Source: Vulcanimicrobiota bacterium
GTDB lineage: Bacteria > Vulcanimicrobiota > Vulcanimicrobiia > Vulcanimicrobiales > Vulcanimicrobiaceae
NCBI GenBank assembly: GCA_963833095.1
Contig: CAWHWQ010000008.1
Coordinates: 32,001 to 96,000, forward strand
Direction of reading: 5' to 3'
Length of the DNA stretch: 64,000 nucleotides
Position 1 is the stretch's first letter. Every line of letters starts with the position of its first letter. The notes beneath the pieces were generated by a model that saw only the letters and a program-made list of their open reading frames with translations, did not search any database and was not told the origin of the DNA. Below are positions 28,358-43,305 of the stretch, piece after piece. Position numbers and translations under genes: made by a program.

Positions 28358-29333
28358 CTAGGCGAGATAGGGTTCATTCGGCGCCACCGGGCCGAGGATG
28401 CGATCGATCTGTGCGACCAGATCCGCTCCCAGGTTGACCTCGCCCGCGCGGACATTATCGGCCACGTGTGTAGGGTTGGTCGCACCGACGATGGCGCTCG
28501 TCACCGCACGCTGTCGCAGTACCCAGGCCAGCGCCATTTGCGACATGCTCAGGCCGGTTTGCGCCGCCAGCGGTTTGAGTTGCTGCACGGCGTCGAGCAC
28601 GGCTTGAGTGAAATATTCCGCCATCATGTCGCGGTACGGACCGGCGGCACGCGTGCCGGCCGGAGGATGAGCGGCGTCGGTATATTTTCCGCTGAGGATC
28701 CCCATGGCCAGCGGCGACCACACGACGTTGCCAAGACCGTACTCCTCGCAGACCGGCAGCACTCGCTCTTCGATTCTCCGCCACAGCGCGCTGTATTGAG
28801 GCTGATTGCTGACCGGCACGGCCCAACCACGGGCGCGGCACAAGGTCACCGCTGCGACCAATCTGATCGGCATTCCATTCGGAAACGCCCCAATACAAGA
28901 ATGTTCCCGCGCGCACCAAGTCGTTCATCATCTCGCACGTCTCCTCGAGCGGCGTCGTTCGATCGAACCGATGGCACTGATAGAGGTCGATGTAATCAAC
29001 GTCTAAACGGCGCAGCGAGCGATGGACCTGATCGCGAATGTGTTTACGCGAGAGGCCGCGCTCGTTGACGCTCTCGCCCATCGGAAAGTAGACCTTGGTT
29101 GCCAAGACCAGCGCGTCGCGATTGAGCTCGTTCACGATCGGCGCAAGCACTTCTTCGGCAGCGCCCTTCGCGTATACGTTGGCGGTATCGATAAAATTGA
29201 CGCCGGCTTCCCACGCTTGCAGGATACACGCGCGCGACGTATCGCGATCGACACTGTTGCCGAAAGTCAGCCACGACCCGATGCCGATGACGGAGAGCTT
29301 GAGTCCGCTGTGGCCGAGCGTACGATATTGCAT
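28358..29333 (-). CDS. Aldo/keto reductase (Kv-beta-like); frameshift at about 28865
   Basis: YRTLGHSGLKLS.IG.GSW.TFG, IDTANVY, LATKV, SLRRLDVDYIDLYQCH, WSPLAMGILSGKY. Confidence 0.93.
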
Positions 29334-35367: not shown

Positions 35368-35741
35368 GTTACGGTGTTCGTCAGCGCATCGAGCGCGTGA
35401 TCCATCGCTTCAATGCGCGCATCCATTCCGGTCACGCCGTACCGCGAGGCGATCTCCGACATCGGCACGTAGGTGACGTTCACGCTTTTGCCGTCTTCCC
35501 ACACCAGCAGTTTGAGCGGAAGATCGAGCGCAACCAGTGGGAACGCGTCCATGAGCGGCGTTCCGCCCTTGGGATTTCCAAAGACGATCAGCGTCGTCGG
35601 CCGCAGCGTCATACCAACGCCTTGCGCGGCTGCGGCTTGATCGATCGTCGCGAAGATCGTGTTGCCGCCCGCGACGATCGCCGTCGAAAGCTGCGTCACC
35701 GTCTCCGCGAATGCGCGGCGGCTCTGCTTGGTCGTAGCCAT
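35364..35741 (-). CDS. DUF302 family protein
   Basis: IFATIDQ..AA..VG, LIVFGNPKGGT.LM, LDLPLKLLVWE. Confidence 0.9.
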   Translation of the reverse strand: MATTKQSRRAFAETVTQLSTAIVAGGNTIFATIDQAAAAQGVGMTLRPTTLIVFGNPKGGTPLMDAFPLVALDLPLKLLVWEDGKSVNVTYVPMSEIASRYGVTGMDARIEAMDHALDALTNTVT

Positions 35742-36058
35742 TAGTTCTTGATCGTGACTCGAAAAACGTTCGGCTTTTCTCGCTGCAGCGTGCAGACGTT
35801 CTCTTTGTTCACCGCCAACCGCGCTTCCCAGACGTCGCTGCTGGGCCACATCGAGAGCTGGCAATACCCTTTTCCCGGCCCCCTCACGTTGGGCGCGATA
35901 CTCCAGCTCCCGCTGCCCGAGCAGAGATTCTGCCCCTGGGCGTTGGTGACGCAGGGGCCCGTGAACGGATTCACCGAGGGCGTAACCTGCGCATTCGTAC
36001 CGTGGACGACGAGATAACCATACGTGAGTGCAGCGATAAGAAGTGAATGCATCCACAT
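35741..36058 (-). CDS. Small, probably secreted four-Cys hypothetical protein
   Basis: Hydrophobic N-terminus and four Cys; TAA overlaps the DUF302 ATG. Confidence 0.55.
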   Translation of the reverse strand: MWMHSLLIAALTYGYLVVHGTNAQVTPSVNPFTGPCVTNAQGQNLCSGSGSWSIAPNVRGPGKGYCQLSMWPSSDVWEARLAVNKENVCTLQREKPNVFRVTIKN

Positions 36059-36074
36059 GGGGTTCAATTGCGGC

Positions 36075-37061: not shown

Positions 37062-37905
37062 GATTAACAGGCAGAGCGCGGTGCCGGAGCAGGAAGAGAA
37101 TCTGCTTGGGAATTTCTTGAAGGATCGCCGCACCAAGCTCGATGCCGCTCGCTTCGGCTATGCGTCGACGAGAAGGCGTACGCCCGGCTTACGGCGCGAA
37201 GAAGTTGCGCAGCGCGCCGGCGTGAGCACCACCTGGTATACGTGGCTGGAGCAAGGGCGCGGCGGAGCACCCTCCGCCGATGTGCTCGAACGACTGGCTG
37301 ATGCGCTCGCGCTGAGCGAGGTCGAGCGCGAGCATCTTTTCTTGCTCGCGCAAAACCGGCCGCCGGAAGTGCGTCATCACGACGTCGAAGCCGTTTCGCC
37401 GCAACTGCAGCGCATTCTCGACGCGATGGAGTATAGCGCCGCGTACATCAAAACAGCGGAATGGGACATCCTTGCTTGGAATCGCGCGGCCACCGTCGTG
37501 TTTCGCGACTTGATGGCGCTTCCGGACGATCAGCGCAATCTCTTGCGCGTGGTCTTCGATCCGCGCGCTCGAGCGGCGATACTCCACTGGGAAAGCGTCG
37601 CACAATTCGTAGTAGCGACATTCCGAACCGAAATTGCGAGAATCGGGGTCTCCGCGCGCGCCAAGGCGCTGATCGATGAGTTACATCTATCGTCCGCGGA
37701 ATTTCGAGCATTGTGGCGCAGCCATGACATCCGCGCGCACGGCGAAGGAACGAAATACATTGCGCATCCGACCGCCGGATTGGTCACCTTCGAATATTCG
37801 GCTTTTGCAATCGACGGTCAACCACAGCTGAGCATGATCGTCTACAACCCGGCGACACCGAAGGATAAAGCCGCCGTTGCAGCGCTCATCGAAGCGCTAC
37901 CGTAA
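37060..37905 (+). CDS. XRE HTH regulator with MmyB-like ligand-binding domain (start at ATG 37060 or GTG 37081)
   Basis: RRRTPGLRREEVAQRAGVSTTWYTWLEQGR, WDILAWN, FRALW..HD. Confidence 0.93.
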   Translation: MINRQSAVPEQEENLLGNFLKDRRTKLDAARFGYASTRRRTPGLRREEVAQRAGVSTTWYTWLEQGRGGAPSADVLERLADALALSEVEREHLFLLAQNRPPEVRHHDVEAVSPQLQRILDAMEYSAAYIKTAEWDILAWNRAATVVFRDLMALPDDQRNLLRVVFDPRARAAILHWESVAQFVVATFRTEIARIGVSARAKALIDELHLSSAEFRALWRSHDIRAHGEGTKYIAHPTAGLVTFEYSAFAIDGQPQLSMIVYNPATPKDKAAVAALIEALP

Positions 37906-37911
37906 CCACCG

Positions 37912-38550
37912 TTACTTACACTTCGTATCGCCGGAGAACATCCCGGCAACACATTCTTCGTTGCGCTGCATCGCTTGGGCCGCGGCGTTAATCTCGTGAT
38001 TCAGCTGGGCCAATGACTGGAGCGTCTCACTTAGCCGCGTCACCGCGCGATCGCGATGGACGCCAAAATCACCGCGCGCTGTTTGCACCTCGTCGCTCAA
38101 CGCAGCGAGCCTCGTCTGATAAGCACGCATTGCTGAGGCCCCCGCTTCGATGGCGCCAAAATTCCAACTCTGCTGGCCGCTTTTTCGCAGCATCCCCATA
38201 TTCATCTGAGGCAGTACCTGCTCGTTCGGCGCGTTGTATTGCGAGGATGCGGATATCGCTTGGAGCGCCTGGTGAAGTTCGTGCAGTGCGGCGCGCATGT
38301 TGTCGCTCGTGCGCTGCAAGCTAGCGTTGACTTGCGTTCCGGCCTGACCTCGAAGGTGAACGGCGATTTCCGAACCGGTCGTCTCGATCTGCCCGCCCAC
38401 TTGAGCGATTTCACTGGTGAGTCGGTCAAAATTTGCGGCATTCGCGGCAGACGCCGCGGGGTCGGTCTTCATGTCCGCCGCGCAAGTCGGCACCGGGACA
38501 AAGAATGCGGCTATGGCCAGCACACCAACGAAAAGATAAAGAGGCTTCAT
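37912..38550 (-). CDS. Signal peptide plus CFP-10(EsxB)-like and ESAT-6(EsxA)-like tandem WXG100-derived fusion, 212 aa
   Basis: ADMKTD..A..A.NFDR...Q.ETT...RGQAGT...QY resembles CFP-10; QQSWNFGAIEAGASA...DE and AQAM..E..VAGMF resemble ESAT-6 (compared with sequences recalled from memory); ATG overlaps the upstream TGA. Confidence 0.82.
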   Translation of the reverse strand: MKPLYLFVGVLAIAAFFVPVPTCAADMKTDPAASAANAANFDRLTSEIAQVGGQIETTGSEIAVHLRGQAGTQVNASLQRTSDNMRAALHELHQALQAISASSQYNAPNEQVLPQMNMGMLRKSGQQSWNFGAIEAGASAMRAYQTRLAALSDEVQTARGDFGVHRDRAVTRLSETLQSLAQLNHEINAAAQAMQRNEECVAGMFSGDTKCK

Positions 38551-39581
38551 GCCGCTCGGTTGACCGTAAGGCGCTCGTCGACCAGCGCGACGATTTCGTC
38601 GACGACGTCGGACTGCATGCCTTTTTGCGCGGCGAGCGACTGCACGAGGCGATCGACGCGCTCGATGTTCTTTGCGCCGGCGTAGAGCGCGCGCGCGGCC
38701 GAAGCGGGCTTCACGAGAATGTCGGCGGCGTTTGCGTACTTCTCGAAGGGCACAAGGTCGTCGCGCGAAGCGCCGAGCGCTACGCACAGATCGGCTACCC
38801 AGGCGTACACAGCGCCTGATGCATCGCGATCGCTGTGCACGGCATCGCGGATCGAGCGCGCATCGCCCTTTTGTATGCAGCGATAGTTGCCGGTCATGAG
38901 CATCGCCCATTTCGCCATCGGCACGTAGATCGAGTCGTACACCTTCAGCTTCACCGGAAGGCCGACGGCATCTACGGCCGTTTCGAGATCGCGAAGCATC
39001 TGCGTGCGCGCATCAGATTCAAATCGCGCCGCTTTGAAGTTTGTCGGCAGCGTTACTTGCAGCACGTTGATCGGTTCGTCAGGGGGGCGGAACGCTTGAG
39101 GATCCGGGCTACACACCGTGATGTTTGCCGCGTCAAAGTGCTGCCACACGCTCGGATCGGTATAGCACCGTTCGAGCGCGCTTGCATCGACGCCGGGCAC
39201 GCGCTTGAAATACGGTAGCGGCGGCATATTCATGATCGCCATGCATGCGACGCCGGCTTTAGCGGTTGCGCCCAAGAGCTCGCGTACACCCGGCGATCCG
39301 TACTGCGGCTCTTGCATCGCCAGCACAACGAGATCGTACTTGCTTGGATCGACGTCGTTCGGGCCGGCAGCGCGAAGCGTGCCGGGCGCGTTGCGCGTAT
39401 CGATCTCGACCAATGTCTCGCGCCCTTTGACCGGAACCCGGAGCACCACGCCGTCGCGATTGATCGCCTCCACTTCGGTGGGCAGGCACACGAGTGTAAC
39501 GTCCTGGCCGGCAAGCGCCAACTTCGCGCCTAGCAACGAGCCATACGATGCACCAAAGACGAGGACGTTATAACGCTTCAC
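38547..39581 (-). CDS. Ketopantoate reductase (ApbA/PanE)-like Rossmann-fold protein
   Basis: VLVFGASYGSLLG...G.DVTLV, YDLVVLAMQEPQY; GTG start. Confidence 0.7.
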   Translation of the reverse strand: MKRYNVLVFGASYGSLLGAKLALAGQDVTLVCLPTEVEAINRDGVVLRVPVKGRETLVEIDTRNAPGTLRAAGPNDVDPSKYDLVVLAMQEPQYGSPGVRELLGATAKAGVACMAIMNMPPLPYFKRVPGVDASALERCYTDPSVWQHFDAANITVCSPDPQAFRPPDEPINVLQVTLPTNFKAARFESDARTQMLRDLETAVDAVGLPVKLKVYDSIYVPMAKWAMLMTGNYRCIQKGDARSIRDAVHSDRDASGAVYAWVADLCVALGASRDDLVPFEKYANAADILVKPASAARALYAGAKNIERVDRLVQSLAAQKGMQSDVVDEIVALVDERLTVNRAA

Positions 39582-39627
39582 ACGACCCCCAAAAACTTGG
39601 CCTTGGATCTTTGAAAACTTGAAAACG

Positions 39628-39714
39628 TGGTGCCCAGGAAGGGACTCGAACCCCCACGATGTTGCCACCGCCAGCACCTGAAGCTGGTGCGTCTACCAAT
39701 TCCGCCACCTGGGC
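39628..39714 (-). tRNA. tRNA-Leu(CAG), 87 nt, CCA encoded
   Basis: GCCCAGG/CCTGGGC acceptor stem, D-loop GGAATTGGTAGAC, anticodon arm CCAGC-TTCAGGT-GCTGG, long variable arm, GGTTCGAGTCC. Confidence 0.98.
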
Positions 39715-42831: not shown

Positions 42832-43305
42832 CTATTGTTCGCAGAACAAGAAGCCGTTGCGGTTTCCGACTTGACGCGATGGACATGAGCGCAGGTCGAG
42901 TGAGCTCGAGCGATAGCCGTTGCCGGTGCTGCACTCGGCGCTGAGCACTGAACCGTTCATCGAAGCGTTGTCGCAGCTAGCCACCCAGCTACCGCGGGGG
43001 AGATGGTGCCAGCGACCGTAGCCGGCGTCCGAGCTATAGCTATTTCCACTTTCGCAAAACAGCTGGCCGTTGTTGTTCCCGAATTGACCGCCCGGGCACG
43101 AATTCAAACCGATTGACGAATACGTCCAGGAACCACCGGTTGTTTGGCATGAGGCGCTGAACTGGTTTCCCGAAATGCGAGCATGACGGCAGCTTGCCTG
43201 CCAACTGCCGCCCGGCCAACTTGGATATGACTGCGCGTGGGCGGGTTTCGAGAAACCGAAGAGCGCGAGCGTTGCAACGGTGAGAATGGATAGCGCGATG
43301 CGCAT
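42832..43305 (-). CDS. Secreted CVNH (cyanovirin-N-like) two-repeat protein
   Basis: Signal peptide ending AHA; repeats GSWQASC...FSASC...SSIGLNSC...GNNNGQLFCE and GSWVASC...LSAEC...SSLDLRSC...GNRNGFLFCE. Confidence 0.82.
   Translation of the reverse strand: MRIALSILTVATLALFGFSKPAHAQSYPSWPGGSWQASCRHARISGNQFSASCQTTGGSWTYSSIGLNSCPGGQFGNNNGQLFCESGNSYSSDAGYGRWHHLPRGSWVASCDNASMNGSVLSAECSTGNGYRSSSLDLRSCPSRQVGNRNGFLFCEQ

Follow-up and report, generated by a model that had tools for sequence, protein, structure and literature searches.

How did an EsxB/EsxA pair come to lie as a single gene behind a signal-like leader in a bacterium outside the Actinomycetota, and by which route would its product leave the cell? 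The gene occupies 37912..38550 on the minus strand (as do all gene features placed by coordinates here unless noted) of a 64,000-nt stretch from a Vulcanimicrobiota bacterium (GenBank assembly GCA_963833095.1, contig CAWHWQ010000008.1, positions 32,001 to 96,000), hereafter the window. Translation and profile comparison gave a 212-amino-acid (aa) product consisting of a leader, an EsxB/CFP-10-like half, a linker, an EsxA/ESAT-6-like half and a Cys tail. We recovered the open reading frame (ORF), coordinates and translation reported in an earlier note made from the sequence alone, along with the residues it singled out (LRG at 66–68, YNAPNE at 105–110, C200 and C211). That note proposed re-routing from type VII secretion (by the T7SS) to Sec, and every computational test that we ran agrees with the proposal, with two details corrected below (the LRG turn and the ancestral Cys pair). 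The explanation we favor, with moderate confidence, is a Sec-exported, disulfide-stapled single-chain four-helix bundle that would act by itself, as an envelope or binding protein without lytic activity.

Origin of the fusion

In a search of 177,635 PDB sequences, residues 21–112 matched M. tuberculosis EsxB (E 7.5e-7) and residues 126–206 matched ESAT-6 (E 5e-4), and the family profile gave 6.6e-13 and 2.4e-9 for the same two proteins. Homology and the structural model place the EsxB-like hairpin at residues 25–119 (38194..38478) and the EsxA-like hairpin at residues 126–206 (37933..38175), with a Pro-containing crossover linker running from Y105 to W129 (38167..38238). A protein search returned 12 relatives at 61–90% identity, and a library of 50% representatives added three at 35–41% (P0015–P0017) plus three single EsxB proteins. 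A single-sequence search for shorter proteins returned one fragment only, and these searches may have missed more distant members. Family counts below refer to alignment A2, which holds 15 of the 17 full-length members (34–90% identical; two near-copies of P0003 were excluded).

A long-read indel error does not account for the fusion: a 1294-nt Logan contig from run X4, which may be the source sample of the window, spans 37274–38567 with no differences and no gaps. Both the leader–EsxB and the EsxB–EsxA junctions are crossed as well by contigs of X2, which match exactly, and of X3, from a related strain. We rejected an assembly artefact on the exact short-read contig and the orthologues in other genomes, and a synthetic construct or contaminant on the divergent family, the syntenic host flanks and a GC content of 0.58–0.61. 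Many genes between window positions 28455 and 47006 do look frameshifted, among them an HtrA-like ORF and ORFs that are, judging from motifs, presumably MFS and ligase-D-like. Some genes in this region carry single-base indels relative to short-read contigs, as expected of long-read assembly errors.

The nearest unfused relatives were esxB-esxA pairs 30–49 nt apart in Mycobacterium and Actinomycetota records, arranged in ESX-1-type order with EccB, EccCa, EccCb and EccD (all four confirmed as flanking genes for locus L029, EccD for L028 and L053). We take these loci to be ESX-1 from the ESAT-6/CFP-10 match and their gene order. The halves of the fusion follow the donor order, EsxB then EsxA. 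In five mycobacterial genomes with 5–19 WXG100 matches each, the family profile picked out the ESX-1 pair only. Half-profiles scored 38–69 bits on ESX-1 EsxB and 34–50 on EsxA, versus at most 13 bits on other WXG100 proteins, three of which belong to the host phylum. Trees grouped each half with ESX-1 at moderate support (88/87, 80/91; 94/94, 90/92 for the B half), and identity to ESX-1 EsxB was 17–28 of 75 ungapped positions. The first trees and the donor consensus took EsxB by its W-x-G pattern and left out a group with LQG at the turn, which the later EsxB set includes. As a specific donor, LQG-type EsxB was neither supported nor rejected: it had an approximately unbiased (AU) test p of 0.08 and scored 38–51 bits versus 69 for L029.

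Across the family, 21–25 aa separate the junction Tyr and Trp, where direct joining predicts 20–30 and stop read-through 33–42, a length that fits direct joining of two donor genes over read-through. In genomes G402, G403, G405 and G406, esxB and esxA share a reading frame with one or two stops between them. From these comparisons an ESX-1 origin is very probable. We infer that transfer ran from mycobacteria to Eremiobacterota, because the fusion occurs in one narrow lineage in which no T7SS was found, versus a system native to mycobacteria.

The window protein (P0001) scored 18.8 bits with the Pfam WXG100 model (PF06013), below the 27.3 cut-off, and 20.1 bits with TIGR03930, whose 44.85-bit cut-off also exceeded the best member (P0017, 35.5). 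At 212 aa, with two hairpins and a leader, it departs from the ~100 residues and single hairpin of WXG100 proteins. Judged by sequence, the fusion is very probably a descendant of ESX-1 EsxB/EsxA yet falls outside both the WXG100 family and the T7SS substrates by the tests of membership.

Leader, cysteine pairs and type VII motifs

Residues 1–24 (38479..38550) form a predicted signal peptide for Sec and signal peptidase I (SPase I). The basic n-region, hydrophobic h-region, Pro turn and small residues described in the earlier note were found in the window copy and throughout the family: the n/h/c pattern is present in 15/15 members, with a short n-region that is positive in 13/15, a 9-residue Kyte-Doolittle peak of 2.6–3.3, and a Pro-containing c-region with small residues at −3/−1 in 15/15. 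The window leader has one basic residue and a peak of 3.1, and that of P0013 was seen at the DNA level only (L026). The note had allowed a cut after residue 24 or 25. Cleavage after A24, with −3 small or aliphatic and −1 small in every member, is favored over cleavage after A25, which would place Arg at −3 in 11/15. The predicted mature start coincides with that of CFP-10 after Met removal, in line with the claim that the cut falls where CFP-10 similarity begins. No 19-residue window of the mature part exceeds 1.14 in any of the 15 members, which leaves it without a transmembrane segment.

An internal start at Met27, which the note named as a way for its reading to be wrong, is not general, because Met27 is replaced in 6/15 members. 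The leader is still in frame in these members, and leader-only dN/dS was below 1 in 33 of 35 pairs. By inspection of A2, the leader is neither of the Tat type (RR occurs in P0015 only) nor that of a lipoprotein (the leader has no conserved Cys, most members having Arg in place of C23). When the leader profile was run over 45,250 candidate genome N-termini, the top ranks looked mostly like signal peptides or membrane segments. No leader donor was found within the genome, where the best blastn-short matches were 12–20 nt and the best profile score was 17 bits versus 61 for the leader itself. Export by Sec with SPase I cleavage is predicted with high confidence.

AlphaFold2 run on A2 (mean pLDDT 76, pTM 0.69) gave helices at 31–64 and 68–100 in the EsxB half and 131–157 and 163–204 in the EsxA half; the leader was low-confidence or disordered, as was the linker, a low-pLDDT coil. 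Two Cys pairs occur in the family. Pair 1 consists of residue 31 (34 in P0008) and ~104 and is complete in 11/15 and absent in four, including the window copy, where the two positions delimit 38242..38460. Pair 2 is C200 and C211, a predicted C-terminal disulfide loop (37918..37953), complete in 9/15 and absent in two, with the tail missing in four. Every member has at least one pair, neither pair is ever half present, and unfused EsxB has no Cys in 20/20. By a register argument from the model helices, residue 31 lies opposite ~101, and a disulfide of pair 1 would shut the EsxB hairpin at its open end. In the orthologue alignment called for in the earlier note, the leader is present in 15/15, at least one Cys pair in 15/15 and Trp at the EsxB turn in 0/15. 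The possible disulfide it drew at C200/C211 is present in the window copy but is not the ancestral one: distant members carry pair 1 without C200/C211, making the EsxB-half pair the older.

A wide fold search matched four-helix bundles over residues 29–208, with ferritin-like folds at Z up to 11.3. EspB was listed at Z 9.0 (rmsd 3.1, 140 aligned residues, 7% identity), below the level that indicates kinship among helical bundles, and EsxA/EsxB chains were not among the top 50. The window protein has no E-x-x-H motif, and none is conserved across the 15 members. An intramolecular bundle with disulfides is likely.

The earlier note took LRG at the EsxB turn (residues 66–68, 38347..38355) as decay of the WXG motif, and this part was not supported. 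Although W occurs there in 0/15 members and G in 15/15, LRG is unsafe as a sign of decay because H-L-Q-G occupies the same turn in 7/20 distinct unfused ESX-1 EsxB, in one case (L028) with a confirmed EccD alongside; the available part of PMC3935865 also records [H/L/F]-X-G variants. The H-L-Q-G turn, with YxxxD kept, was seen in environmental Mycobacterium ESX-1 EsxB (L027, L028, L036–L041, L045), and P0021 has F-R-G. The EsxA half did prove to lack WXG and to be shorter, as the note had said: the best single gap was 12 residues relative to 8/9 ESX-1 EsxA (the deletion is 8 residues in P0016), and the removed block holds WXG in 9/9. A new short turn at residues 158–163 (38062..38079) marks the site. 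Decay of the YxxxD/E export signal was likewise upheld. The motif is kept in 2/15 members (P0016 and P0017) versus 20/20 unfused EsxB, with the Tyr invariant, and the remnant in the window copy (YNAPNE, 38221..38238) has N at +4 of Y105 and its acidic residue one place too far. Exact spacing is required according to the portion of PMC3935865 available, and the accessible text of PMC8313811 describes the WxG and Tyr motifs of EspB as meeting at one end of the bundle. From this analogy we infer that the composite WXG and Tyr-motif signal was lost in the fusion family. In EsxB-half trees the earliest branches are the two members with YxxxD intact, an order that suggests stepwise decay of the signal after fusion.

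We searched for export machinery in five carriers (G000, G002, G009, G013 and G014) that are 68–93% complete (G000 is 81% complete, G002 a single contig). Profile searches gave no match to EccB or EccD in any of the five. EccC was not found in any of them either, and the single FtsK-type gene in each genome explains a weak EccCa match. None of the five had a WXG100-like match besides the fusion gene, and tblastn of the L029 ESX-1 proteins against G000 returned only FtsK, a weak AAA match and the fusion itself. Orthologues that kept the EsxB-turn Trp or sat in T7SS loci would have spoken for T7SS export in the terms of the earlier note, and none did so. Phylum-wide, WXG100 scored above cut-off in 4/401 genomes and EccCa in 0/401 (all 401-genome tallies include ten flagged unpublished genomes, none a carrier).

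Within the phylum, near-full-length EccC/EssC-like genes (309–387 bits, below cut-off) were confined to one distant family (G137:C97:85514-91947, G160:C347, G107:C12, G129:C141:51828-58613). In G137 and G129 WXG100 genes adjoin them, a probable type VII-like system, and a literature search for such a system in Eremiobacterota returned no paper. In the window's own family, partial EccC-like matches occur at G254:C1:23797-24814 (139 bits) and G397:C184:4511-6448 (132 bits), the latter with a weak WXG100 match 1 kb away.

Components of the alternative route were present. Signal peptidase I was found in 5/5 tested carriers. Profile (HMM) searches found VKOR in four, its locus missing from the 81%-complete G000, and Omp85 in four, while blastn located the Omp85 locus of G000 too. 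With Omp85 and VKOR present, the carriers likely have an outer membrane and a route for disulfide formation. G000 (C5:589211-591006) and its orthologues have three consecutive signal peptidase I domains, and a single frame of 454 aa holds two of these.

Distribution, locus and selection

The family profile matched 6/401 genomes of the phylum, all six among the 18 genomes of the window's Eremiobacterota genus. One carrier record (L023 in G012), deposited as Alphaproteobacteria, groups in this genus by genome search and is likely mislabelled. The contig of P0015 is 76% identical in DNA to another part of G000; P0015 itself lies between genes that adjoin each other in G000, which puts it at a different site in a related organism. 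Within the genus the gene lies ~1–10 kb from a tRNA-Leu(CAG) (39628..39714 in the window), the edge of a variable region with differing neighbors, and it was not seen at this site in 11 non-carriers (two on short contigs). On a 1.26-kb flanking marker compared across 15 genomes, four carriers failed to group as one clade (p-AU 2e-7), and identities of the fusion gene and flanking marker ran roughly parallel. Early gain with repeated loss fits the marker data, and exchange inside the genus is also possible.

The fusion start codon overlaps the stop of an upstream ApbA-like gene (38547..39677) as ATGA. That gene is not an obligate partner: other carriers lack it or have it on the opposite side, and non-carriers have it too. 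No conserved immunity or partner gene was found among 16 scanned neighbors, which vary between carriers. A defense check gave only weak coiled-coil-type PADLOC matches and one weak PHROGs match (1/15), and we found no phage or plasmid vehicle among 72,556 plasmids, 50,697 phages and IMG/VR contigs. In co-occurring strains the ApbA-like and fusion genes stand in swapped order (window 37895–39600; L022/L025), with joints 37896>38552 and 39572>37895 found in runs X1–X3 and in agreement with G002/G009. The region beside the tRNA resembles shuffled cassettes. Also in the window are a small protein with a signal-like leader and CVNH (cyanovirin-N homology) domains (42832–43305, E 6e-12) and a second such protein (35741–36067), which is 108 aa long, contains Cys, likewise has a signal-like leader and matches no family above cut-off.

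Nine copies yielded 35 informative pairs, which are not independent, and whole-gene dN/dS was 0.25–0.61 across them, in no case reaching 1. These ratios indicate that the gene is maintained by purifying selection yet fast-evolving, because they are below 1 yet above those of the ApbA-like neighbor.

Comparison, competing explanations and significance

Relative to the ESX-1 EsxB/EsxA heterodimer (PDB 1WA8, 3FAV, 6J19), the two halves show homology and an unchanged order, four helices are predicted, and the T-D start, EsxB-turn G, Y, Q-x-W-x-F and final G-x-F are kept. The fusion differs in being one chain with a leader, in the deleted EsxA WXG loop, in the loss of YxxxD in 13/15 members, in its Cys pairs, and in a host outside the Actinomycetota with no T7SS found in the five tested carriers. 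CFP-10/ESAT-6-like clusters are described in the available part of PMC3935865 as exclusive to Actinobacteria and strictly tied to T7SS. EspB, a PE-PPE-like single-chain four-helix bundle of ESX-1, likewise consists of hairpin-type partners joined by a long flexible linker (available text of PMC8313811 and bioRxiv 10.1101/2024.01.30.577966), but it keeps WxG and YxxxD, is a T7SS substrate and has a different parent family. ESM Atlas clusters of ~205 aa with WXG100 domains, most commonly from Bacillota where a phylum is recorded, share the double length; they were likened by feature score (0.82–0.87, leads only, below 0.9) rather than by sequence, and a double-length WXG100 fusion alone is probably not new. 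Ferritin-like, Dps and DUF305 bundles share the helix-helix-crossover-helix-helix order (top Z 11.3 for 3HIU, many at 8–9.6) at 4–13% identity, and the fusion lacks their conserved E-x-x-H metal motif; the similarity is one of arrangement only, the ancestry by sequence being clearly Esx. Engineered secreted ESAT-6 and CFP10-ESAT6 antigens also place a leader on ESAT-6, whereas the fusion is a natural family (34–90% identity) with host-like GC, syntenic flanks and purifying selection. P0019, a synthetic-looking protein with a eukaryotic-type leader, three ESAT-6 repeats and basic spacers, appears as a natural-looking entry in the protein library.

In the explanation that we favor, the window copy would be translated, possibly coupled to the upstream ApbA-like gene through the ATGA overlap, exported by Sec and cleaved after A24. 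The two tethered hairpins would then fold into one bundle, the Cys pair or pairs would oxidize and close its ends in an oxidizing compartment, and the mature bundle would do its work unaided, as an envelope or binding protein in the periplasm or beyond it. Fusion would solve an assembly problem: because Sec passes unfolded chains singly, whereas T7SS exports the obligate EsxB-EsxA heterodimer pre-folded, the heterodimer could be rebuilt reliably outside only with its partners joined. With T7SS recognition no longer needed, the composite WXG and YxxxD end would be free to erode.

Several observations weigh against this account. AU tests on ~100 columns neither rejected a grouping of the B half among WXG100 proteins of the host phylum (p 0.068, 0.20) nor separated a place inside ESX-1 EsxB from one beside it (p 0.47, 0.42), and motifs of the family itself had served to retrieve the ESX-1 comparison set. 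Only G002 and G009 are at least 90% complete, and they are nearly identical at the fusion gene; the EccB/EccD tally leaves out carrier G012. Co-occurrence of the Cys pairs represents about three evolutionary events, not 15, and two copies lack the Cys tail, that of G014 stopping at the C200 codon and that of L034 ending early. The family is patchy (6/18 genomes of the genus), its dN/dS is well above the 0.08–0.14 of the ApbA-like neighbor, and 5/8 copies checked, including that of the window, have no Shine-Dalgarno-like (SD-like) motif upstream. A 455-nt contig of metatranscriptome X20 is ~90% like the gene, but DNA carry-over is possible there because depth is similar across all 30 bins of a 17-kb stretch.

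A non-lytic role of the exported bundle stands at even chances, and membrane lysis is the less likely role. An unlikely alternative is a Sec-exported, membrane-active protein in which low pH frees the EsxA half from its tethered EsxB chaperone for insertion into membranes of competitors or predators, possibly as domain-swapped oligomers. M. tuberculosis ESAT-6 lyses acidified liposomes (available part of PMC8931374), whereas the available text of PMC8313811 reports no membrane insertion at acid pH for EsxA of the non-pathogen M. smegmatis. The EsxA N-terminal Q-x-W-x-F and the Met equivalent to M83 are invariant (15/15), but the same residues are conserved in environmental ESX-1 EsxA and may be structural. 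A flexible linker of 21–25 aa would permit the swapping that PMC8313811, as far as available, speculates on for EspB; the halves, tethered covalently and stapled by Cys, should not part easily. EspB does appear in the fold list, at a Z of 9 that is within the range of unrelated helical bundles, and the EsxA hairpin is 12 residues shorter and has lost both inner Trp. No immunity gene was found among the scanned neighbors. Such activity also enters a wider proposal, possible but doubtful, in which the captured ESX-1 pair was rebuilt as a one-gene, secretion-system-independent effector, Sec-exported with its own chaperone half, redox- and pH-gated by Cys staples, and acting on membranes or neighboring mycobacteria.

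An exported decoy or signal mimic, binding a mycobacterial EsxAB partner or a grazer or host receptor and disturbing ESX-1-dependent contact behavior, would draw on the specific ESX-1 ancestry, on ESX-1 involvement in signaling for conjugation in M. smegmatis (PMC8313811 and PMC9040860, in the parts available) and on a patchy presence with moderate dN/dS that suits an interaction gene. We consider it improbable: the surface best known for recognition (WXG and YxxxD) has disappeared, ESX-1 EsxB is matched at the limited identity given above, and there is no known target. Even less probable is a leader that stays uncleaved and anchors a tethered periplasmic bundle. The long, strongly hydrophobic h-region would suit an anchor, but a Pro-containing c-region and an A-x-A-type site stand at the exact start of EsxB homology in 15/15, and carriers have SPase I. 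At the bottom of the ranking, and highly improbable, is a composite reading, in which the protein is cytoplasmic and starts at Met27, or serves an unassembled T7SS as substrate, or is a neutral relic in an island. The incompleteness of G000 (81%), the two copies without a tail and the lack of an SD-like motif before the first ATG of the window copy favor it, but Met27 is absent in 6/15 and in the window copy has no SD-like motif before it either, the leader is in frame and constrained, whole-gene dN/dS is below 1 in every informative pair, and single-contig G002 has no T7SS core.

In the literature searched, which covered few subscription journals, we found no description of ESX-1 ancestry combined with a Sec-type leader, Cys pairs and a T7SS-free host. 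The family is rare and its function is read from sequence and model, which limits its significance. Within that limit, the carriers are soil and water bacteria of Eremiobacterota that likely borrowed the EsxAB pair from mycobacteria for a role outside the cytoplasm. The fusion offers a case of a heterodimeric substrate changing its export pathway, by fusion, gain of a signal, loss of the old one and Cys pairs, with intermediates (P0016 and P0017) that still carry YxxxD. A standing question, as posed in the available part of PMC8931374, is whether EsxAB has an activity of its own outside the cell or mainly serves the secretion of other substrates. In the present family, selection maintains a probable ESX-1 descendant in a different phylum, where no T7SS was found and a Sec route is predicted, and selection on this orphan, Sec-routed copy suggests that the EsxAB bundle is useful in itself. 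If the effector proposal were true, the family would be a natural experiment in which the bundle is active apart from its role in type VII export. In either case it makes a non-pathogen protein available for testing the activity of EsxAB itself.

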